This document shows, one piece after another, positions 17,706 to 61,351 of a stretch of 64,000 nucleotides of DNA. Made by a program: the position numbers and the translations under genes. The DNA comes from Lobosporangium transversale. Lineage: Eukaryota. Each line of letters starts with the position of its first letter. The stretch's first letter is position 1. The stretch covers positions 372,001-436,000 of the forward strand of contig NW_019029014.1 in assembly GCF_002105155.1 (NCBI RefSeq). Direction: 5' to 3'. Under the pieces are notes generated by a model. That model was not told the DNA's origin, made no database searches, and was given only the letters and a program-made list of their open reading frames with translations.

Positions 17706-20561
17706 TTAGCTGCTACTGCTACAACTCTGTAATTTTTTCAGGGCAGAGACAAAGCTATGATAAAATATGATGTTACGGAAGTTTTGATTGGTCATTCGGT
17801 TTCTGCGTGCAGACAGGATCCATCCGGCTCTGCTGAATAACCTTTCAGAATCATTGGAAGTAGCCTGGACAGAAAGGTATGCTCGTGCAAATGGAGCAAT
17901 ATAATCCATTCCTCTTAATCCCTTGTCCTTTTGCTCCTTCCAGTAAAGCTCAGGAGTAAAAGCAAAACGCGCGATGTCCATCATCGGCGTTCTTGAAATA
18001 GACGCATCATAATATACCATATCGACACTAACTATCGAATGGTAATATTCTTGTTCCAAAAGAGGAAGTTGATCCCAACATGCTCCATCTTGGGTGGCGG
18101 CAAACTTTTTTGCTGCATCTCTGGTCACCTCTAGAGCTTTCTTCCTGAGAGAGTCACCATTGGTTGTCATTATGTCTTTAATGATACTCAAGGTCACCGG
18201 GTTCAGGAATAGCGATATGAGCATAACATCGGGAATGTCATCCACGGCCCACATCGTATTGATAAGCCTGTTAAGGTTTCTCCAGAGCTCCTGTGCCGTC
18301 TCGGTGTCGTATGTGCGAGAGTCCGGTAGCAACTCTTTCAACTTCACATACATTTGTGACAGTTTTGGATGGTCGGTACTGCCCACCCATTCAGTGAATT
18401 TGACTGCATCTGTCATCATATGAATGATTTCACGGAGAGCTTTGACCTCATCACGATCGAGTAGGTTTGGCTCTAATTCCTTTGCTTTCAACCTTATCTC
18501 CCTTTTTTCGGAGGATTCCATGCGATGGTAGGTGCGAGAAATTGCTTGAGAGTAAAGTAGCACTCTATTTGCCATCTTGTACTGGGAGTTCCATCTTGTA
18601 ATGTTCCTCGACAGCAACTTGGCACCCTTGCCTTCCTGTTCTTCCACTAAGATAGACATCGCCGCGGCATTGCCTCTGAAAAAAACTGGCACTTGTCCAA
18701 TAATTTCTTAGCGGGCTCGCATAGCTCCAAAGACTATTGATGCAAAGCTGGATCTTATGTGAGGCGCATGCCAACCAGTGCACCCCCTTGTGATCTTCTT
18801 GGTAGAGAGCTATCGCTTTTTTTATATTAGCACCTTGGTCTGTTGTTGCGCAAATGAGTCTTTCGCTCATATCCATGCTATCAATAGCCTCAGCTGGTAA
18901 ATGAATCAAAAGACCACAAAAAAAAAAAAAAAAAAAAAAAAACGTTAAGAACGTTAAGAACGTTGCAATACTTATGAAAATATAAAGATAAGGGGCAGAT
19001 GTATCAGCATTTCACTTACCAAACTTCCGGTGAGTATTTTGGGATGTTTGCACCCCATAGACTTGTTCCATCCCTATTGCAATAGATACTGGCTCGAAAT
19101 TTGGCGTGAAAAAATGCATTGTAGTCCCCAAGAACTTCCTGTGATCGACGCTTGTCCAGCAATCTGTCGTGACGGCAGCGTAAAGCTTATAATAGGTAAT
19201 GTACTCTTTGATTTCGCGTCTCATCTCTCGAACTCGTCGATCCATCCTGTCTTGCATAGCCATTGTGGTAGGGATATTGAAATAAGGATTGGTCATTTCA
19301 ATGATTGATCTGAAGATCGTCGAATTAACTGCAGTAAAAGCGTATCCTCGAATGCTTCTTGTTCATGAGGGAGCGGCTTCTTGAGGCTCTCATTAACAAT
19401 CTCATCTCGTGCGATGTCGAATTTTGCCTTTCTTGGTGGAGCCACGTCAACTTCTTCCGGATCAGGTGGCAGCATGATACCTTTAACCCTGCTCTGACAA
19501 TTGCGAAATTCTTGGAGGGCACTATATAAATCGCCATGGCACTGAGTTAAGTGAACAGATCTTGAATATCCACTCCGTAGTACCACAGATTACTCCATCT
19601 TTCAGGACCAGACACTGGAATTCTTCCTTGCTTGATTTGAAAAAATGACCAATCACGCTGTTTTTGCGAAAGGATTTTTGATTTGGAATCAGGGCTAATG
19701 CTTTTTGAGAGGGAGGGGCGTCAGAGCATTGTTCTGGCGTAGGAATGGTACCAAAATCCAGTAACTCGTACAAATCATACCATCCGTTTGATGCAAAATG
19801 ACTATCCCTCAGCTCTCTCCGCCGGTTGGCCAATGCTTCAGCATCAATGGCACGTGTAAAGTCAAAAGAGGGAAGATTAATAGATCTTGAACGCGTAAAG
19901 TTAATATTGCGCTGCTGCGTGGAGCTCAATGTAGAAATCGAGGAGACTGAAGATGGGCCTGGTTTTGACTCCCGATATTGGGAGAAGCTGTTGGATGAAC
20001 GGAGAGATGACAGTGGGGGTTGCTGTGCAGCAAGTAGCGTATGATTATAACGTGATGTAGGCAAAGCTGTTGATGATTGAGAACGTCCAAACGTCCTTGG
20101 TCTGGCATGATGAACCGATTGCGCAAATCCACCGGGAGGAGAAGAAGTTTTGATGAACCTCCTCTTTTCGCGACCAATGCTTACCATGGGTCTCATCGTC
20201 TGGGATGAAGACGAGATTGGGTTCGCACCAAGATAGGAGTCTAGTACCTCAAGCTCATCACACGGCATATCTTGCGTCTCGAACGATTCGCCATTGTAGG
20301 CTGCATCACTAGTTTGGGGAGAATCGATTCTATTTGCTGGAAGACTTTCTGGAGTTGCATTCTTCGTTCGATTTGATTTCGGCGAGGTATAAGGGTCTCT
20401 TCCTCGTCCTCGTCCTCGTCCTCGTCACTGGTGTGCTCCTCCTGATACTCATTCCCCTCCTCGTGTCCATCCTCATACTCATCCTCATCTTCATCCTCAT
20501 CCTCATACCCCTGTTCTCCATTCTCATCCTGGTGAAGAGGATCATGTGTATGATTTGCCAT
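17706..20561 (-). pseudogene. Frameshifted hAT transposase (acidic N-terminus, BED-like Zn finger, DDE, dimerisation domain)
   Basis: Motifs in successive, shifted frames: FQCLVLKDGVICG...HLTQCH, VTTDCWTS, TTDQGANIKKA, CASHKIQL, TRWNSQYKM and ATSNDSERLFSRAG. One intron (~19019-18892). Apparent frameshifts near 20395, 19580, 19295 and 18700-18730. Confidence 0.88.
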
Positions 20562-36636: not shown

Positions 36637-37478
36637 GGCATAGCTGAGTGGTGAATATCTAGAGAGCAAGAAAGAAAGAGACAAATAGTATATTTATATC
36701 GAAAAGGAAATAAAAAGCAGAAACATTGTAGTCGGTATAGTTCTGAATCCTCAGTTCCACGCGAAATTGCTCCGTGCACGACCGTTCTATAAACAAATAT
36801 ACTTTATGAAGTTACACGTAGATTTATGTCATTTATTACTAAAAGAGAGATGTACACTGTATAATATGCGCACCTTGCTCTTACCGCCTCCCCATATTGA
36901 TTGACAGAACACACTTGTTCATTATAGTTTCCTCCAATTACTTTGCATTTGAGAAAGCTACTTGAAAGCCTAGCAGCCTGAATGGATCTGATGTGTAAAT
37001 TTATAGTTCTTATCGTTCTCCGTGGTAACAGTGTTTAGGTATGGAATGTATATATGTGGGTGGTCTTTCAAATTGTTTAGATAGCTTTTTATCCTATCAG
37101 CGCTGGCCTCGGCCTCAAAGGAAACAAATGAAGATACGGCTTGAAACTCATTCCCTATGATCACATAAAACCTCATTTCAAAAAGAACTGAAAGGATAGA
37201 AAGCTTCCGACGGTATACAAAAGGCAAAGACTTCATTCTATAAAAAGCGTAGACGACTTTTTACGCCAGGTATTACCAATATATAACAGAGACATTAATA
37301 TCTACGAATTGTTGCAGTTGTCTTCACTGTAAAATCACAGTTGCAACTGTTTCCAGCCATGAAAAAAGATATACCCTTGGACAGACTCGCCATTGTAGTT
37401 TGACTGATCAAGTGCAAAAAAAGGTATCAGAAGGTCACAAGTTCCCTTGCTGGTGACAGAATATAGAAGTAAAAGAAT

Positions 37479-37551
37479 CGCCCAATGTGGGGGTCGAACC
37501 CACAACCTTGAGATTAAGAGTCTCACGCTCTACCGATTGAGCTAACCGGGC
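37479..37551 (-). tRNA. tRNA-Lys (CTT), intronless
   Basis: The minus strand reads GCCCGGTTAGCTCAATCGGTAGAGCGTGAGACTCTTAATCTCAAGGTTGTGGGTTCGACCCCCACATTGGGCG, a canonical cloverleaf with anticodon CTT. Confidence 0.97.
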
Positions 37552-37691
37552 ATTCGATACTAGAAGCTCTTGTTGAGATGGACGTTCCTAGAACATATAT
37601 AAATCTATTTCAACATCCCTTATTTACAAGGTCTTATCTTCGTGAACTATCACGAAAATGGAAAACATTGGTCTATAACTGCAAGACATCC

Positions 37692-37920
37692 GAGTCCAAT
37701 GGCTGAGTAGTATACTCGTCAGGGCACCCCCTGTCTAGACTAGGGGCCGGGTTCGAGTCCTGGTTAAGGCATATAAAGTGAAGCAAACATGTGCCAGGTC
37801 AGGGATTTGTCTGAGTTTTTATACTTTCTCTTCGAGACAGCCTAGTGTTCTCCGCTAAGGCTAAGATCGTGGGTGCACTACCCTAAGTCGCCTGGCTGGC
37901 CACACGTCTTAGTTATATAT
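37692..37920 (+). mobile_element. tRNA-derived SINE-like element or tRNA pseudogene
   Basis: A box TGGCTGAGTAG (37700-37710), B box GGTTCGAGTCC (37750-37760) within a T-stem, and an anticodon-like hairpin CCCCT...AGGGG. The D arm is aberrant and the acceptor stem broken. A non-tRNA body follows and ends in (TA)n. Confidence 0.5.
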
Positions 37921-38399
37921 TCCACCCAGCCGAACCAGCGGTACATCTGGCAGCACATCCCCCATCCACCCACTTGACTAGGACAGCGATGATCACAAAG
38001 TTTGACGGAGTCCAAAGTAGAAATTTCAGACCAATCCCGCAAGATTTGGGTCCACATGCCAGTGGATTTGATCGAATAGAAAAAAAATTAAAAGTCGTCC
38101 TTAGCTAGAGTCGGCACGCCAGCCTCCGCGGCTTTTCACGGGCGCAACAGGCCACATCGGAAGGATGGACTTCGAGTACCGATCACGGTGTACATTGGTA
38201 GAGAAAAACATGGATACGAATTGGCTCCACAGCCATACCGTGCGAACTTTGAGAGTTTCACTTGTTTCATAGTTGAGGGCGATATCATTAATTTAGAGCG
38301 AGATTATGAAATAAAATTCCTCACCTCTGTGGGTTCTTGTTAACACGAAAAAAAAAAAAACTGCAAGACGTCCGACTATCCTTATTATCAAGTATCTAT

Positions 38400-38887
38400 A
38401 ATTGCAAGGTGTTTAGGAGGACTACATTTGGAAACTTTGGAGTTGCATATCGATGGTGTATGGGGAAGTACGACCCACCATGGCGATAGGAACGGCGATA
38501 GTGAGAGTGAGGAAGAGATAGGGCTATGGACTTACGCCCAAGTCCATTACTCAGAGTTGGAAAGCCGGTTTCAAGACAACAACAAGAATAATTAACATGG
38601 CCATAGAAGAATTCAGTCATACAGAAATCTGGAACAAACGGTGTAAAGTTACCGTTGAATGGGAAAAGGCTTGTGGGATCACTGCTATGAGCAAACACGT
38701 CGGAGGACGCAACTGTGTTAGGGAGTACAGACGTAGTAGCAATGATTTCCTTGTTCCTTCTCTGAGACAACGGCAGAAACTGAATGTGAGAGAGATCTAC
38801 AAGATCGCAGATGACCGAGTCCGGGGCAGCTACTTTGGGAAAACTAAACTGGACGTGATGGAGCGGCTAGGTGGAATGAAGTTTTGA
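38400..38887 (+). mobile_element. Relic of a non-LTR (LINE-like) retrotransposon ORF2 C-terminus
   Basis: GLTPKSITQSWK...TEIWNKRCKVTVEWEKACGIT resembles the W..RC....EWEK..GIT C-terminal segment of LINE-type polyproteins in early-diverging fungi. Upstream stops are present and no RT core is visible. Confidence 0.45.
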
Positions 38888-39759
38888 TGACTATGGATAG
38901 CGGATAATTTGCCGCGTTGCGTAGCAGGTCACGTCGAAAAGGTGGATTTTGAGTATTAATCACGGCGGTCAGGGTTTATGAAATCATGGTGGTTACGAAG
39001 AGAGCCAGACTTGGAGGCAAATAGATTTGTCCTCGTGAGCCTTAAAAAATAAAAAATAATAATAGTAGTAACTTTGATAAAAAAGTGTCATGATAGAGCC
39101 TGGGGGGGGGGGGGGGGGAAGAAAAGACAAGAGTGGGAAGCGCCAAATTACACTGCACAGCCGAGTCGGATAAAGAGCGCGTAGGTAAAGGAAAGGGTAA
39201 AAAAGTATGAAAGAGAGAAGCGAGCAATTCTCTGAATTCTCGGCGCAGGGTTGATTTTTTTTTTTTTTTTTTTTTTTTGGGTACAAAACAGTTGATCTTC
39301 TGAAGGCTGTCTTTTCCATGCGAACAAGAATTAAAATAAATAAGTGAGTGCCGTCACACTACCGTTGGATATCTCGTGAGCAAACGCGCGCCAAGAGACA
39401 CAGTATTGAGAGGCACAGGCGTAGCAGAGGTGGGTTCTTTGACTCTCACCAGGGACAGTGGCGAGCAGGTTGATGCAGATCAGCAGATGGCGGCAGGCTA
39501 CCAACATCAAGTGGAATTGACGGTTATGGAGCGCCTGGGAAATTGTAAATTTTTGATGCTCGATGACTGCAGCTAAAGGAAAACCTTTGCGCACAACAGG
39601 CTTAGTAGAGAGTAGACCCCTGCCACAGGCCCACAGGGGGCCAGGGAAGTCTGCCTGGTGCTGGTATACTTCGAGGATAGGATGTTGTATTGTGCCAGTA
39701 TGACTATGCGACTACAGTCGCAATGTTGGATACCGCTTCATTTGCGACCACGTGGGTTG

Positions 39760-39795
<36 letters not shown>

Positions 39796-40497
39796 GCTGC
39801 CATAACTTTCTATCAAAGGTTTGTACAGAAATGACGAATCGCGACATCCCTTCCAACCTACCATCTGCTCCCAAGTGCAAGCGGGATCCCTTGAAGGTAT
39901 TAGAAAGCCGTTATAGTGGCACCATATAGTTGGGCTTTGCCCATTTTCCAAATATCTCTTGTATTCAAGAAATGTATTTGCATGATAAAGGATAGTATAG
40001 TACAGTTTTCCCGGAATACAAAACGCCTTTAATCCTTCCCCTTGACCTAAACTTTTACACCTATAATATTTATTTGAACAACGCCACAAATAAAACAACT
40101 GAAAACGCCGGGTGACGACATGTTTAGGTGTGATAACATCAGGAAGGCGAGGCTTCTGTTGCTGTCATATGAAAACCATAGAGAGGCGTTACTTGTGTAC
40201 ATGTACATTTCTGATGGACTTCAAATAGACGACGGCGGTAAGTGTTATTAATTCTACTTCGCCATACACTAACTTAAATATTGACATTATTTACTTTTTA
40301 GAAATGCAGCACTGATTTCTAAAGGCGCTAAAGGGAGTGATGGCGAAGCAGGAAAGGAATGAGTGACTGGACAAAGAAGTTGACAGAAGAAGTATGTAAA
40401 TGACTGGATATAAAATACGATAGGAGTAATGAACAGCTGCACAAAAAAACCACTTTCTCTCGTCCTCTTGCGCTCCAGCAAGCCGCTTTAAAGTAAA

Positions 40498-41244
40498 ATG
40501 CGAAAAACATATCTCTTTGCCTCAGCAATTGTGATCACTGTTACTATTGCAACTCCATTTCAATCGCCATTCTCCAATACGGGCAAGGAACTTGTAACAA
40601 TCCAGGGCAATTTAGATGTTACTGGTAACTTCACTTCTGACAATATTAAATCCTCCGGCTGTATCCATTCCTCTGGCAATATTTATTCTTCTGGCAACAT
40701 TAATTCCTCTGGCAATATCCACTCCTCTGGCAATATTAGCTCCTTCGGCAATATTAGCTCCTTCGGCAATATCCACTCTTCTGGCAGTATCAGTTCCTCA
40801 GAAAACATTGAATCCTATGGCAGTATCATTTCCGCTGATAATATTATCTCTAGCGGCTACATCTCGACTGAAAAATATGTTCATGTTAAAAAAGAATATA
40901 CTATAGGAGAGAATTGCCCTACGAACGGCCTAATCGGAGTGGATAATACCGGTCAAGTTCTTTCTTGCCAAGCCGGGGCATGACGCAAATCATCAACCGT
41001 TCAAACGGGTACGGTCATTCGAGGACATGCTGAGAGAGCATTCCGCTTCCCAGCTGCCTTTGTTTCATGTGAGCCTCATGAGCGTGTGGTTGGTGGAGGA
41101 GGCGCATGCCAACAGCCAGATGGGTATATCTGGCTTATAGCTTCAAAACCAGTTGATAATGGTTGGCTTATTCAGTGTGATGGGGGAATGAAGCAACAGT
41201 GGGGTACTGCAAGTGTATGGGCCATTTGTTTCCACAGTGCATAA
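40498..41244 (+). pseudogene. Secreted shufflon PilV-like adhesin gene (bacterial-type), intronless, with one in-frame TGA at 40981-40983
   Basis: Signal peptide, then 12 hexapeptide repeats, then GYISTEKYVHV...GENCPTNGLIGVDNTGQVLSCQAGA*. The same frame continues RKSSTVQTG...SCEPHERVVGGGGAC...SKPVDNGWLIQC...ASVWAICFHSA to TAA at 41242-41244. Confidence 0.75.
40651..40866 (+). repeat. Twelve 18-bp tandem coding repeats (S-S-G-N-I-x)
   Basis: SSGCIH SSGNIY SSGNIN SSGNIH SSGNIS SFGNIS SFGNIH SSGSIS SSENIE SYGSII SADNII SSGYIS. Confidence 0.9.
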
Positions 41245-41902
41245 AGGATTCCGACAATAAAATTTTCAGTGCAGTTGGTGCAAAAACACTGATCCATCCT
41301 CTGTTATTACAAAGCGATGAAAGCATGAAATTAAGACTATTCTTATGAGTTTCATTCAAGGAATGAGACTTCGGCACATTAGTATAACACAATGTTGAAC
41401 GAGGCATCAAAAGCAAAAGAGCTTTTAAGAACCAAAGACGCCTATTTAAACTTTGCAGATCATTTACATATCAAAATTGCGGACCAAGCGCATATCTGGA
41501 AATTGTAAATGGCTGGTTTATCGTTGCTTTTTGATCCTTTTACGTGTTCTCCCCATCATCCACATAGACCGTTATAGCATATACGATGACCTAGGATACA
41601 TCTCACACGGTATAGACAACACACACACACACATATATATATATATGTATATAAACGCTTTATTTCGTCTATATTCTATGGCTTTGAAGGGCCATATTAT
41701 ATAAGTTAGTTTAAAAAAGATAAACTGTGGTTTTAGTTGTGGAAGTAATATTTAATACAAAGCAGCACACACACCTTGGCTCAGTTATAAAGTTGACTTT
41801 AAAGGTGATCCATATTTCACGACCGTTATGTTCTTTCACATATTGTCCCCTCTGAATATAAGTATATTTATGCAGGTTAACAAAACAGAATATTAACTTT
41901 AT

Positions 41903-43336
41903 TTAATCTGCTTCTGGTGTTGACTCTCTATCAGAGTGACTATCTGACCCAGATCCAGATCTAGATCCAAAAATATCGAGCGAATCAATGAGTCGGCGCG
42001 TAACTGACTTATTTTTGACTGTTGTCGTTACTCCTGCTGCTTCTGCTTCTGCTCCTGCTTCCGTTGCTGCTCTTGCTTCTGCTCCTGACTTTAAAGATGT
42101 AATTGTTTCAGCCGAGACGCCTTCATGATCCACTATGAGAGGCATCTCCAAAGTATTAGGAGGGAGATTCACATCCATAAAGTAAACAGTGAAGCGGACA
42201 ATATGTGAAATATTCAGCCAATCGAGGCTATGTTCTGAAGGAATCAATTGGAAATTGTCTAGGCGGATATCTAGTTCAAGGGGCTTTTTCCGACCAAAGT
42301 CCAGATCAAAATCCTCATTTTCGACCTTTTTGATCGAAGAAACCAGTCTAGAGCCTTTCACAGTGCATGAAGCTCCTGGCTCCTGACTAATTTTTATTTT
42401 TATTTTTTTTTGTAAAGAGATTATTAATGTTAGCGGCTGCTTTGAACAACACTAGGAACAAAAAGAATAGCAAGGGTAGAAGGAAGTGAGAAAAAAAAAT
42501 GCTTAGAAACAACTTACGCATTCTCGACATTAGGATGACCTCGTTTGGTAGTATAGTTGATATCTTCTGTCTGAACAACAGCAATGTCGATTTCCTTGAT
42601 CATAAAAGACTTGTGACGAGCCTTCATATCGACTGTGGCACGAAGCTTCTCTTGATTCAATGAAATTCGTGAAGGTATTGTCACCTTGCACCGGAACTGT
42701 TTTGGTAAATCTGTGGACGCTGTCAACAATGGTGTGCTTGATTGATCTTCAGAAGCACCAACAGTAGTAGGGATGGGTCGACGAAGGATCAAGTCATGCT
42801 TTACAATTCGTGTGGATGAAAAGATAGAGTCGCGTTGCAAAGTTGCATGGATCTCATATTTCCAGTCAATGTAGTGAGTATCCAGTTTGTTGATTAGGGT
42901 TGGGGGAAGGACATCAGGATGTGGTAGGTCAATACGGAAAGGAAGATATTGTGTGCCTGACTCTGGAACTCTGATTGTGCCATGCCCTTCAGTATCATTG
43001 GCTGCAATCAAATCGAATGTGGATCCTACAAGGCGCTCATGGACAATTACAGGCTTGGTATCGATATTTAATGCCACTCCAACTATTACAAGGCGTTAAA
43101 TTATAAAGATTAAGAATAAATATTGGATCTCTATTTCATATCACCATAAATTTATTCCATGAATAAATAAATAACATACTGTGTCCATGGATGTCCACCT
43201 TTGCCACTTTGAACTTCTCAGGGCTATCCAATTGGAGCACGATATCGCCAGTTAACGTTTGCAACTGGCTCTTTGTATCAAGCTCAACAATGAAGGGCTG
43301 TTCGGTATTGAGAATGATATCAAAAGTGAAACCCAT
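41903..43336 (-). CDS. Arrestin-fold protein (alpha-arrestin-like), 3 exons, copy 1
   Basis: LTGDIVLQL...KVAKVDIHGH, YLPFRIDLP...LPPT, IDWKYEIHATL and LDWLNISHIVRFTVYF. Confidence 0.75.
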
Positions 43337-44634
43337 GTTGAATTATATACGTGCAAAGAATGGATGATAAATGTATGTGGATGGTTAAGGGGGCGTAATG
43401 AACTTCAGAAATGTGTGAGGAAATTAAGAATGGGTATAATAGGAATAGAATATGCTGTGAGAAACGATAGGGAAAAGAGAAAGAAATGCTCCTTTTTATA
43501 CTGTCTTTTAGTAAATCGACCGCGGGCCAAAAGCAGTTCAATTATCCCTTTTTGTATTTTATCTGCACAGTAGTAAGTTTACTTCAAGTGGGCGAAGGCA
43601 TAAAGTGGCAAAAAAAATTCAAACTAATCGTTCCAATACTGCTCTTCAAATTTTTTTTTTTTTTTTTTTTTTTAATACTTTCGTCTGACAAATACATTGT
43701 ACTCTCCAACCCAATTTTACATTGCTTTTTTTTTTTTTTTTTTTTTTTTTTTTTCACTCTTTGAGTCTTGAAGGATTGGTGGGCATCCAAGTTGATTGTC
43801 CTTGATACTTGAATCACAAATAACTTTACCTCCTTCGGACAAAGAACAGAGATGATCATCATGCACCATGACTTAATTGGCATACGCCTCCTACGCCTCC
43901 CATCCCTTTTTTTAAAAAAGGAGCTCAGCCCAACTTGGCAATATTTTTCTAGGTCCTTCTGTTACAGACCAAGCAGGCAGGTAAGATGACGATCGATATA
44001 AAAACATGTATTCATTACCAAGAAAGCCTGTCAGGAGGACAAACACAGCTGCCATCTTTAAATTGTTTCCGCAGTATATACAGTACAAGCTTCGCATGTT
44101 ACAAAAGGAAAAGAAAAAAACTCTATCTGGCTTAGATGATGTGGCAGGGTAAAAAGATATATTTGTACATTTTGCCAGAGGACGTTGAAGCGGCTTTTGG
44201 CTTTAGTTTAGTCAGAGCTTCGGGTCAGATGGATAACATTTAATGGGAGTCTCCATCATGGGTTTATGATGCAAAAAAAGAGAGCTCCTGCATGTGTAAC
44301 TGTTTTCTTTTTCTTTTTTTTTTTTTTTAATGCGGAGTTATCTTGCTTCGCCAACAACTGTACATGTATATATATACAATGTAAGCAAAAACTTTGTTCC
44401 CACCTCGGCAAGACTTTAATTGTCCCTCGCGTGAGGTGGATTTATGCTCCCGAGCTTCCCCTTTTTTTTTTTTTTTTTTTTTTTTTGGCAGGAACATTAA
44501 TAATGCGTGGAAACTTACACGTATCACAAAACTAGAAAAAGATTACAATATCGCGTGGTGCGAAAGGATCGACTAATTGTCTTACAGATTTATAATGTTT
44601 TTTTATGTATAAAAAGGAACAATCTGCACTCTTC

Positions 44635-46155
44635 CTACAAGGTGAGTTTATCAGGAAAAGGTGCTGTGGCTGCTATAAGTCGTTCGCCCTCATAGTTATA
44701 ATCTGGCGGTAAATCATCTGCAAGGTCTGGGACAATGGGCTCCCGTTCCGGATATACTTCACGATAGAGTTGTTGTCGGGTACTCATGCTCATGCGAGTC
44801 GTATTTGAGTCTAGGAGAGTTGAATGGTCATCCTCTGTTCCATAATCTGGAGGCGTCACACCCTCAGGTGCAGGCTGGAATGACCACAATTCCTCTAGTA
44901 TATTGCCGATCTGGAAGGGTGCCATGACTACTAATGGACGGATCGTAGAATCTGCAAACACAATAGTAAAGCGGATCCCATGACTGATTTTGATCCAATC
45001 TAAAGATTCACTTGGCAGTAGCTCGCTTGTTTTAAGCTCCAAATCTAATTCAATCGCAACCTCTCGACCCCATGCGGTCGTGAATTCCTCTTGATCTGGA
45101 TTTTGAACTGTCACTTGTTTGCTCAGTACTCTAGCAGTATCGGTATCGACCTGAACTTCACTTTCGCTATCGCTGCGGAGTATATCCATTGATGGTGAGG
45201 TGGTCTCTATAATCGTTGAATGGCTATTCATTGTATGCAATGGTGAATAAGTTTATTTTTTTTCTGTTGGAGAGAGGAAGCTGGCGGCACATTAGATACT
45301 TTAAAAACAAACTTGCCTTTGACGCATGCGTCGCACAGAATCAGTGATCTTCTTTGCATTAAAAGTCACTTTCTCTATTTGAATGATATGCGCAAGGATC
45401 TCTTTCACTCCATATGTTTGGTGAAACGGATGCAAGTAGATGCTCAGACGGACTGTTGTTTCCTGGCAGCTAATAAATTTGGGAGCATATATTGAACATT
45501 CAAAATTTCCTGGACGCCTGGCGCCATATCGAACATTGGACGTATCCGAAGGTGGGACGTGGACTCGTTTGAGATAAAGAGGCTGCCTTTGAACTTTCCG
45601 TCGAGCAAATAGCCCTGTGGGCACTGCAAGGGTCACTAATTCGTATCCCCAGACAACAGCGCCTGATTTGAGTTTGGAACCTGCAGCTGAACTGGCAAGG
45701 TCGCCTGGAAGGGTAATTCGAAATGGAAAAGAGTATTCACCTGGCAGATAGGGAGTCGTTGCGCTGATGACGTTGAATTCTGAGCGTGAGATCGTAACAG
45801 CTTCACTCTTCATCGTTACCATGGTTGTACTGTAGGTAATGAAAGCTATTATTGTGATCGTTTAAAGTGGGAAAAATCGACGACACCCTGCTAAGTTTTC
45901 TCTTTTCTTGTTCCTCTTTCCCCATTATATTACGATCCTACGATTGTTCCATCATTGACCCCTACATATTGTCATTCATTTTATGATACCTGCTCCAACA
46001 AAGGCCACTAGTAATTGTTTTAGCTGAATAGCTTTTTGAACGCTTAGGCGGAGAGTTCCAGTGATTTCATGTTGGATAACTGTGCTGGGTGGACCAAGGA
46101 ACTCGATTACATTGGGCTCCTTAGTATCCAGGACTGCTTCGATAGTGAACGACAT
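44635..46155 (-). CDS. Arrestin-fold protein (alpha-arrestin-like) with PPxY motifs, 3 exons, copy 2
   Basis: Exon 1 MSFTIEAVLDTKEP...ITGTLRLSV (absent from the ORF track), PGEYSFPFRITLPGDL, LDWIKISHGIRFTIVF and C-terminal PPDY twice. Confidence 0.8.
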
Positions 46156-58833: not shown

Positions 58834-59673
58834 TTATACTTTGTCCAAGCCGAGGTCGATACCCTTGTCACCAGCCCCTCCACCAAAGGCATAAAATCCA
58901 CTAGTATTTCGCTTCACTTCCTCCCGCTTAGGACCAGGGCCTCTCTCACGACCACCATCACCATCGGCATGAGTATCCTGTTTTTGTCCGCGCTGACGAA
59001 CATTGACAACTGTCATGTCCAGGGTAGGAAGCTTACCGCCGCTGACGCCTCTGATCTCAACATTAGCACAATGATGATAGAACTAAATGATTATAAAAAA
59101 TAAAAAGGAAATGTTAATTCTTCTTTTTTCCTTGTATTATTATTATTGTTATATTTTCCTCAAAAAAATTACCTGGTTGATCCGGTAAGCAGTCCATGAC
59201 ATTGCGAATAGACATTTGTTGGAATCTTTGCATGAGGGCGCGTTGTGGGGAATCTGAACTGGCCATCTGTAGTAGATGTCGGGGCAAGTCTCTGTATACT
59301 GTCCAATGACTTTCCAGGTTTTTCCACCATCGTACGACAATGAGAACTCACAAGCCCCCCCTCCATGACGTGCAGGCTTCACGTTACTGGGAGGAGGGAA
59401 TTTGTCATATGGCATTCCAAATGTCCAGAATTCAACGCCAATGGTTTGACCAGCATTGAGTTTCGTCACAGGTCCCTTCTTGTAACCTCCACAGGGAAAT
59501 TTTTTGCCTTCATAACCGATCCAAGCATGAACAGTGTTGCGGAGATCATCAGTCCAGGGACCAGCCTGACCACGAGGGTATGACATCGCAATATGTGCAG
59601 AAGCCGGTGTAAGAACTGAGAGAAGAGTTGAAGTAGCGATGAGGACGCTACTGAAGAGGGAGATGGCCTTCAT
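58834..59673 (-). CDS. Secreted AA11-like lytic polysaccharide monooxygenase, 2 exons
   Basis: Signal peptide ending ASA followed by His1 (HIAMSYPRG), then FPCGG, ARHGGGACEFSLSYD, CLFAMSW and Q|FYHHCANVEI, with a GPGP tail. Confidence 0.82.
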
Positions 59674-61351
59674 ATTCTCTAGTATGTGAGCCTAAAAAAA
59701 AAGGCAGTGATTTCTTTGTGGAGGAGATTTACTAGAGGAGTAATAGGAGAGGGAGAGATGTGAAGATTTGATGAATAACAGCAACAAAAAGAAAGGAAGA
59801 AAAAGAGGGACATGTCTGGGTTTTTATATGATTGCATCGAAGAAAGAAAAGCTTCCTAGAACGGACGGAACGTGGTAGAGGACAACGCGTTAGTGTGCTT
59901 CATTGTTTAATTTCAAGACAAGACAAGACAATAGACTACTTTTTACCCCTGGTTAGAGAAGTGGTTCTCACCACAATATGAAATAAAACTTTGATTTGGC
60001 GACGGAATCATAATTTTTTCCTTTTTGCATGTGGCTGATCTGATTGGGGCAGGTAACGACAACAGGAAAAAGTTCAACAGATTCAGGAACAGCGCACTTT
60101 ATCATCAAAGAAAAATCATTGGCAAGCGATCAATATCTAGATGCATGATGTATTATATATAATTACAGCTCTACAAATTCAATTTAATGATGGGGGTCCG
60201 AGTCATAGAGTCATAATGTAAACATTTCTCCTTTTCTAACCAAACCCTCTCTTTCTTTCTCCTGGTGCACAGACTTATCAGGCGCCAGAGGGTAAAAAAG
60301 AAATAATAAATTGGTTCATGATGAATGAAAATATAATAGGAAGAAAGAAATGTTCCTCAGCTCGATTTGATGGTTATCGAGTTCATTTCAAGTAGGCCAC
60401 AGTAACTATGGTCGTTCAATGTTGAAAATGACAAAAATATTCATTATTTGCTTTGATAGTTTCAATGCTTTTTTTTTTAAAGAAAAAAAAAGCAATTGCT
60501 TCTTGTAATATGGTTGGAGTGCGAACAAACAGAAATGGAATATAAGCATGAATCAAAACATTCTTCGCCAATTCCGTGATTTCAAAGGTCGGCATCTTCC
60601 TATTATTTGCCTGGAGACGTAAAAGAAGGCTGATTTGCCAAGCCCCCTTCCCCCCAAAAATCATGCCGCATGAATGCAGTGGCTAGCCTAATAGAAAGGC
60701 TTGTTTTACACTTTATTGGGGAGATTGCAGGCTGAAAGTCAAGAAGTGCATGACATGTGGATATTCCTCAACACTGGGGGACTGCATGGACAGATCATTC
60801 AGTTCGGAAAAATTGATTCGGTGGGACAAAAACTAAATGGACGTCCAGCCGCCCTGCATACATGCATAGCGTGGTAATTGCGTCTTGTACATTTTGCAAC
60901 TCTTTCCTTTTTTCCCTATGCTTAATCAAACCATACAACTTCCTCAAATCTTCAATGGCAAAACATCAAGGATGATTTTTTTTTTTTTTAAATTGCTAAT
61001 TAAAATATCTCAAGACCAATTTTCCTTTTTTCCGAACTTGGTCATGCTTACTTATGATCATTGTCTTCAATATATGTCAACAGGGAACCAACTTTGGCTA
61101 GATCAGACTAGACTAAGCAAAGTATATCCTTTCTAAAATTTGACTCAATTGTTAATAGAGATGGAAGTAAACTTCTCTTATCTTGGAACAATATATACAG
61201 TAGTATGCAAATATTATGTTGTATTTACATTACTGAATATGAATTTTCCCCTTTTTTGATTTCTCCTAAACTGTCGAAATGAGAATGGTTGCTCCTTATT
61301 CAAGGGTCCTAAGGTGTAACCCTGCTTTGTGTAGATGTGTGTATGTACAGT

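Follow-up and report, generated by a model that had tools for sequence, protein, structure and literature searches.

A PilV-like gene with an in-frame stop in Lobosporangium transversale and its fungal relatives of probable bacterial origin

How does a gene that resembles the pilus-tip adhesin PilV of conjugative plasmids come to lie in a fungal genome, and what could its product do there? The question is raised by a gene at 40498-41244 of the 64-kb stretch of Lobosporangium transversale DNA analyzed here (the window). An earlier note on this DNA had proposed that a bacterial adhesin module was recast as a secreted fungal protein. With a probability of roughly 0.55, we suggest that the gene belongs to a horizontally transferred family in which no more of PilV survives than its neck and B-type head, that the proteins are secreted and lectin-like for bacterial sugars, and that the copy in the window is a recently inactivated allele.

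The gene runs in a single frame from an ATG at 40498 to a TAA at 41242-41244, has no intron and is interrupted by one internal TGA (Table 1). The encoded protein begins with a hydrophobic stretch; some 12 hexapeptide repeats and a neck come next, and behind the stop follows a head of 86 residues with a net charge of about +2 (own count). What the earlier note had read from the sequence is all present, that is, the hydrophobic N-terminus, the hexapeptide repeats, the block GYISTEKYVHV...GENCPTNGLIGVDNTGQVLSCQAGA and the Cys/Gly-rich C-terminal domain. The "(W)" that it had put in brackets after the block is, however, the in-frame TGA, and this copy is thus broken before the head. The signal-peptide-like N-terminus is borne out as a prediction by conservation and by a hydropathy heuristic (9-residue mean 2.68, n-region +2). 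It is followed by a Thr-Pro start resembling the [ATV]P of the relatives, and over residues 1-49 the identity to the N-terminus of the Haplosporangium relative is 39%. TRF describes the repeats at 40636-40846 with a period of 18, 11.7 copies and 68% matches, and AlphaFold2 models them at a pLDDT of about 90 with a short strand per 6 residues. In the alignment, the repeats are common to the Entomortierella relative, the only other fungal protein with long repeats, and are missing in most others. The exact 161-aa product is absent from the protein collection searched.

Table 1. Features of the PilV-like gene and of its neighbors, in window coordinates
Feature	Position	Strand	Basis
tRNA-Lys(CTT)	37478..37552	-	neighbor of the gene
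Predicted Sec signal peptide (residues 1-18)	40498..40551	+	hydropathy heuristic and conservation
Hexapeptide repeats (SSGNIx type), ~12, predicted beta-solenoid stalk	40636..40846	+	TRF
Neck with Cys pair, from the C-terminal end of the PilV constant region (Shufflon_N)	40834..40980	+	PF04917, R64 PilVA match
In-frame TGA, codon 162 (Trp in relatives)	40981..40983	+	sequence, alignments, DNA runs
PilVB-type head, four Cys, six strands, plus terminal TAA	40984..41244	+	R64 cassette, L005, model
Spliced arrestin-like host gene	41903..43452	-	contigs X3/X4, intron joint in X5

The Pfam family Shufflon_N (PF04917) matches with 30.8 and 31.8 bits against a cut-off of 27.5, at profile positions 193-324 only and partly via the repeats. 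With tblastn we searched 72,556 plasmid records and found matches in 2247 of them; the best 25 rows are all PilV apart from unannotated or hypothetical ones. The Shufflon_N score and the presence of PilV among the best plasmid matches indicate a likeness beyond chance. Residues 309-369 of R64 PilVA match the neck (E = 8e-8), and this is the sole PilVA match in the window. The head matches one of the seven R64 cassettes (41% over 93 aa, E = 2e-13 pairwise), and the other R64 cassettes give no significant match to it. The matching cassette is named "shufflon protein B" in CP029771.1, and we take the label B from this one GenBank annotation. The homology to PilV claimed in the earlier note thus stands, and so does the loss of the type IV prepilin N-terminus, for there is no N_methyl match and PilVA aligns at the residues given above only. 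In the ESM Atlas, the top cluster for the intact relative P0008 is PilV (0.91). No Pfam family matches the head of the window copy alone.

With cassette B of the R64/TP114 PilV the fungal gene has in common the end of the constant region and the B-type head, in identical order and spacing, and the four head cysteines with the GGGG.C, S.P..N.W and A.C motifs. It differs in having a predicted Sec signal and a eukaryotic chromosome as its place, in lacking the prepilin/pilin domain and, in the window copy, in carrying the stop. Of the PilV module that had been proposed, the constant-region end and the head are kept, but the 64-kb window holds no sfx sites, other cassettes or rci; there is no Rci match and no second head in it and, at the gene, no repeat pair.

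Of the 342 profile matches, 150 are listed; among these, a B-type head is also found on other prokaryote-like proteins, and those with both neck and head are mostly PilV-like. Many proteins (P0034, P0036, P0045, P0046, P0062 and others) carry a B-type head without the PilV neck and have hydrophobic N-termini. Phage records gave two partial neck matches only. A peptide scan of the genome contig collection with the window protein and with P0012 revealed no relative in 80 and 42 candidate stretches, respectively. Matches to MinC, FapA, bactofilin and left-handed beta-helix acyltransferases, most with an rmsd of ~11, were rejected as repeat likeness; NCBIfam gave MinC-like repeat matches alone, far under the cut-off.

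For the phylogeny, 49 cores passed the coverage filter (P0013 and P0029 failed). A tree of 45 rows, with four near-duplicates or fragments dropped, unites nine fungal rows and P0049 in one clade (100/97) with P0012 as sister (93/83). A tree of 30 rows was built from 10 fungal-labelled rows (P0049 included) and 20 chosen others; long branches, near-copies and the majority of the head-only proteins were omitted. Here the fungal group is recovered at 91/81, and the successive sisters are L005 (95/87) and P0012 (97/89). A topology that places the fungi with an enterobacterial IncI2 PilV is rejected (p-AU 0.02). The phylogeny that the earlier note had called for is thus in accord with its proposal of a transfer from bacteria: as expected of a xenolog, the fungal sequences are nested among bacterial PilVs, in trees which are unrooted and short (~135 columns), have rough, unsettled bootstraps and contain many "bacterial" rows without a name that were judged by their N-termini.

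The sequence L005 was the one match of a fungal-head motif search in metagenome contigs; viral contigs gave none. Since the motif was derived from fungal proteins, the closeness of L005 is partly selected. At positions 1-1227 it encodes PilV constant-region sequence, the neck and the head, directly followed by a DotI/IcmL gene (47% to a Pseudomonas plasmid DotI). The PilV parts with DotI/IcmL directly behind them indicate that L005 comes from a bacterium and that no cassette array follows its head. Its pilV-dotI order is unlike R64, and the head is fixed. L005 shares only about 36% of its residues with plasmid PilVs, yet 11 of the 12 fungal-clade proteins have it as their best bacterial match; it reaches 62% (45/73) against the head of the window copy and 27% on the neck side. 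L005 and P0012, a JGI protein, are nearest to the fungal proteins in the tree and have the CDGG head motif in common with them (P0012 in part). Unlike the fungal proteins, L005 retains part of the upstream constant region in front of its fixed head, and P0012 retains the prepilin motif. With regard to the endohyphal donor that the earlier note had considered possible, we searched one Mycetohabitans plasmid for a relative and obtained no match. A bacterial origin of the fungal family is in our view very probable, and its source was likely a PilV-bearing conjugative element, with no shufflon DNA accompanying the gene in the 64-kb window.

Ten named fungal proteins belong to the family. They come from seven Mortierellaceae taxa and Jimgerdemannia, thus eight taxa: Gamsiella multidivaricata, Mortierella sp. 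AM989 (two), Entomortierella beljakovae, Linnemannia gamsii, Mortierella sp. GBA30, Haplosporangium sp. Z 27, Mortierella sp. AD094 and Jimgerdemannia flammicorona (two, with adjacent locus tags). Neck and whole head are present in eight of the ten, a hydrophobic N-terminus followed by [ATV]P in seven, and a predicted signal peptide together with a whole head in six; as annotated, the signal or a portion of the core is missing in four. Six of the eight relatives with a full head pass the Shufflon_N cut-off. The automatic UniRef name of the Jimgerdemannia proteins mentions a shufflon domain, and the domain match is thus already in the databases. The fungal heads carry a CDGG..(E/Q)WG motif, unlike R64 PilVB.

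P0013, P0029 and P0049 appear truncated or degenerate. In each of the two trees P0049, a Logan protein with a degenerate tail, falls next to the Jimgerdemannia pair; it is possibly the broken copy of another fungal lineage. The coexistence of intact copies with broken or truncated ones suggests a birth-and-death turnover. The earlier note had also allowed for vertically inherited eukaryotic homologs. A search for longer relatives gave 79 proteins, all of them PilV-like and 78 with PF04917, and none is named as eukaryotic; of the 150 profile matches listed (out of 342), 20 were checked by name, so that other eukaryotic holders are possible. We conclude that the family is real, derived by horizontal transfer and apparently undescribed. 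It would work like a detached PilV tip and is neither a PilV nor a shufflon.

The window itself is a eukaryotic, intron-bearing fungal region. Read by eye, frames of the window look like those of ribosomal protein L9 (a protein also found in NCBI, UniRef and EukProt), of a WNK-type kinase and of an ABC transporter. The neighbors of the gene are eukaryotic and include no pil/tra operon. One contig of run X3 (39888-43641) and one of run X4 (39803-43641), from two studies, carry the gene and its arrestin-like neighbor with zero mismatches. The intron joint of the neighbor (43082-43180) is spliced in X5; Arrestin_C matches it weakly (E = 0.0033, under the cut-off). The physical link to host genes expected of a xenolog is therefore present, and contigs that each carry both the gene and its spliced arrestin-like neighbor argue against contamination. 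We looked for a chimeric join with contaminant DNA and found that the contigs of X3 and X4 run unbroken into the spliced fungal gene. Of the two neighbors to which the earlier note had linked the gene, the arrestin-like gene is confirmed by these contigs, but the join to the tRNA-Lys is unbridged among the contigs listed. A contig of X1 covers the gene and ends at a repeat.

The TGA is seen in the three DNA runs X1, X3 and X4, with no other letter there. These runs are possibly the source of the assembly and not independent strains; the stop and the join are thus real, without implying that the allele is fixed. Runs X6 and X7 differ by C>T and G>A only, as base-converted libraries would, and are uninformative on the stop. 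The position is Trp in all eight fungal rows of alignment A2 and in 61 of the 78 rows of A3. The four remaining Trp codons of the gene are all TGG, and no internal TGA occurs in the three host frames that were checked. The standard code therefore yields a product of 161 aa without the head, and a code with TGA as Trp is ruled out. Nor can an intron rescue the TGA, since all 29 in-frame GT-AG pairs (40-250 nt) around it also remove the conserved C157 and W162. The head behind the stop shows no decay and no frameshift; its mean identity to seven intact relatives is 52%, compared with 47% among those relatives. Such a conserved head beyond the stop fits either a recent mutation or low readthrough. 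Judged from this conservation, which suggests a recent loss, the window copy is probably a recent null. In X5, presumed to be RNA, two contigs of depth 2.7 and 4.5 lie inside the frame and none on its flanks, which is a hint only and does not serve for ranking genes. Among the matches listed for the gene sequence, there is no RNA run.

In the AlphaFold2 model the stalk is a beta-solenoid, the neck is small, the head consists of six strands, and helices are absent (mean pLDDT 86.7; 93.9 for the head modelled alone). Compared by VIA with 48,161 chains, the head has as its top four matches two PCSK9 modules (Z 8.9, rmsd 3.3, 77 aligned; and Z 8.6), RELM-beta (7.2; rmsd 2.3, 65 aligned) and resistin (6.9; rmsd 2.6, 65 aligned). 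Next come apicomplexan perforin-like beta domains, pyocin fiber tips and H-type lectins (Z 3.6-4.7). Foldseek against PDB and BFVD found nothing at E <= 0.001, and the PDB searched by sequence gave weak repeat matches only (E = 0.067 and 0.78). Because Z values of 7-8 are common for unrelated models, the fold likeness to resistin and PCSK9 falls short of demonstrating homology. These best fold matches of the predicted head are likewise secreted and disulfide-bonded. However, they are only 11-18% identical to the head, resistin and the RELM proteins have ten head cysteines as opposed to four, and an N-terminal coiled coil stands where the fungal model has a beta stalk (for the ten cysteines and the coiled coil, see the available part of PMC13647132). 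The same part reports that RELM-beta kills Gram-negative bacteria by acting on membranes, a parallel to the fungal head by analogy only.

We suggest that the family arose and acts as follows. A single old transfer, or perhaps two from related donors, would have brought the module into the Mucoromycota. There a fungal signal peptide would have replaced the pilin anchor, which would release the tip module from the hypha as a soluble, disulfide-stabilized, lectin-like protein. It could form trimers, as other type IVb tip pilins do. It might bind the N-acetylglucosamine-bearing LPS core and tag, agglutinate or sense Gram-negative bacteria on or in the hyphae. The predicted secretion of the intact family members is very probable. 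Binding of bacterial surfaces is, by analogy with the plasmids, the role we somewhat favor. The head of plasmid PilV binds the LPS of the recipient, according to the accessible parts of PMC13729200 and PMC9045228. For PilVB, Table 1 of PMC10654706 gives GlcNAc-alpha-(1-2)-Glc as ligand; the same article, as far as available, mentions an earlier assignment of GlcNAc-Glc to B', and the papers thus disagree on B or B'. With an identity of only about 41% to R64 PilVB, the fungal head may have shifted in specificity. In a bolder and rather unlikely version, the pilus tip would have become a secreted pattern-recognition or antibacterial protein of the RELM-beta/resistin fold that reads the LPS core type and selects, traps or damages Gram-negative bacteria, endosymbionts included. 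If true, RELM-beta and resistin of mammalian host defense would be tied to prokaryotic adhesin tips.

The origin could be the same and the ligand another. The head might then recognize fungal, plant or invertebrate glycans, for example the GlcNAc polymers of wall or cuticle, and serve in adhesion or wall organization. The PilVB ligand is indeed a GlcNAc disaccharide, these fungi have GlcNAc-rich walls, the weaker fold matches take in H-type lectins, and the CDGG..(E/Q)WG motif departs from R64 PilVB. However, the CDGG motif also occurs in the bacterial L005 and partly in P0012 and is therefore older than the transfer, and the head is still 62% identical to a bacterial pilus tip; we consider another ligand unlikely. 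More doubtful is a functional or leaky stop, with UGA read as Trp or edited A-to-I to UGG, by which a little full-length protein would be made beside the head-less stalk. To our knowledge, A-to-I stop editing is known from Sordariomycetes only. The two low-depth X5 contigs inside the frame and the intact state of the head would suit a leaky stop. So would the context UGA-C, which leaks more than any other four-base stop; on readthrough, Trp is the residue most often placed at UGA (both from the available part of PMC4615788). Yet the next codon is Arg in three of eight fungal relatives, so that the C after UGA may be inherited and needs no selection. Moreover, the context CGC is neither the CUA nor the CGG motif, no relative has a stop there as annotated, and X5, presumed RNA, has no other letter at 40983, though this position is 12 bases from the contig end.

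The fungal copies might also be non-functional or near-neutral remnants of bacterial DNA, such as an endosymbiont plasmid, that entered more than once. Besides the broken window copy, the three truncated or degenerate proteins, the patchy distribution and a locus adjoining repeats and a tRNA all point that way. Against this, the start of signal peptide plus [ATV]P is common to the fungi and missing in the bacteria, frames are open with invariant cysteines at ~45-50% identity, no other bacterial pil or tra gene surrounds the gene, and a single clade appears in 92% of the bootstrap trees (30-row tree), which together leave remnants improbable. An assembly chimera or bacterial contamination would agree with the missing intron, with a GC3 of 0.39 compared with 0.42-0.67 in three host frames, with the short contigs (3-4 kb) of some relatives, and with the runs that carry the gene being perhaps from one strain. 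It is nevertheless extremely unlikely, as single contigs from two studies join the gene to a spliced neighbor without mismatch and at a depth like that of adjacent contigs, and as relatives occur in eight fungal taxa, with three of the proteins on contigs of more than 100 kb.

Transfer from bacteria to fungi is known in the Mortierellomycota from Mycoavidus-related NOD-like receptors (PMC11291939, in the parts available). Both cases involve a bacterium-to-fungus transfer and a possible part in bacterial recognition, but the PilV-derived family is predicted to be extracellular and was rebuilt by domain loss. The available portions of the text and two supplements of PMC11291939 do not mention a shufflon or PilV domain. 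The literature searched, with subscription journals and bioRxiv supplements lying outside, holds no account of PilV-derived fungal proteins or of a link between pilin and resistin; the lone fungal paper using the word "shufflon" means recombinases. For the recognition of bacteria hosted or fought by Mortierellaceae and Endogonales, the family offers a small, expressible candidate receptor, together with a ligand hypothesis (GlcNAc-Glc of the LPS core) borrowed from well-mapped plasmid adhesins and, in the window copy, a natural stop allele for comparison. It would also be a case of a eukaryote re-engineering a part of the conjugation pilus by domain loss and addition of a signal peptide. The model moreover suggests a fold for the PilVB head, which has no solved relative by sequence in the PDB.

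Some further features of the window may be noted. At least two tandem arrestin-like genes lie on the minus strand at 41903-45861, with weak Pfam matches under the cut-off, and an arrestin-like paralog elsewhere is visible in X1 and X5. Beside the tRNA-Lys, 37696-38360 is a SINE-like high-copy repeat with an A-box/B-box-like start and a poly-A end; its contig depth in X3 and X4 is about 30 times that of unique DNA, its X5 coverage is strong, and Rfam gives no tRNA match within it. More dispersed repeats, one on either side of the gene, are found at 38630-38990 and 41522-41566. The minus strand encodes at 17706-18707 a hAT transposase C-terminal dimerization domain (28.9 bits, over the cut-off). 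At 59152-59691, also on the minus strand, lies a small Cys-containing, signal-peptide-like protein without a Pfam match; the HIAM that follows its leader is reminiscent of the N-terminal His of copper monooxygenases.
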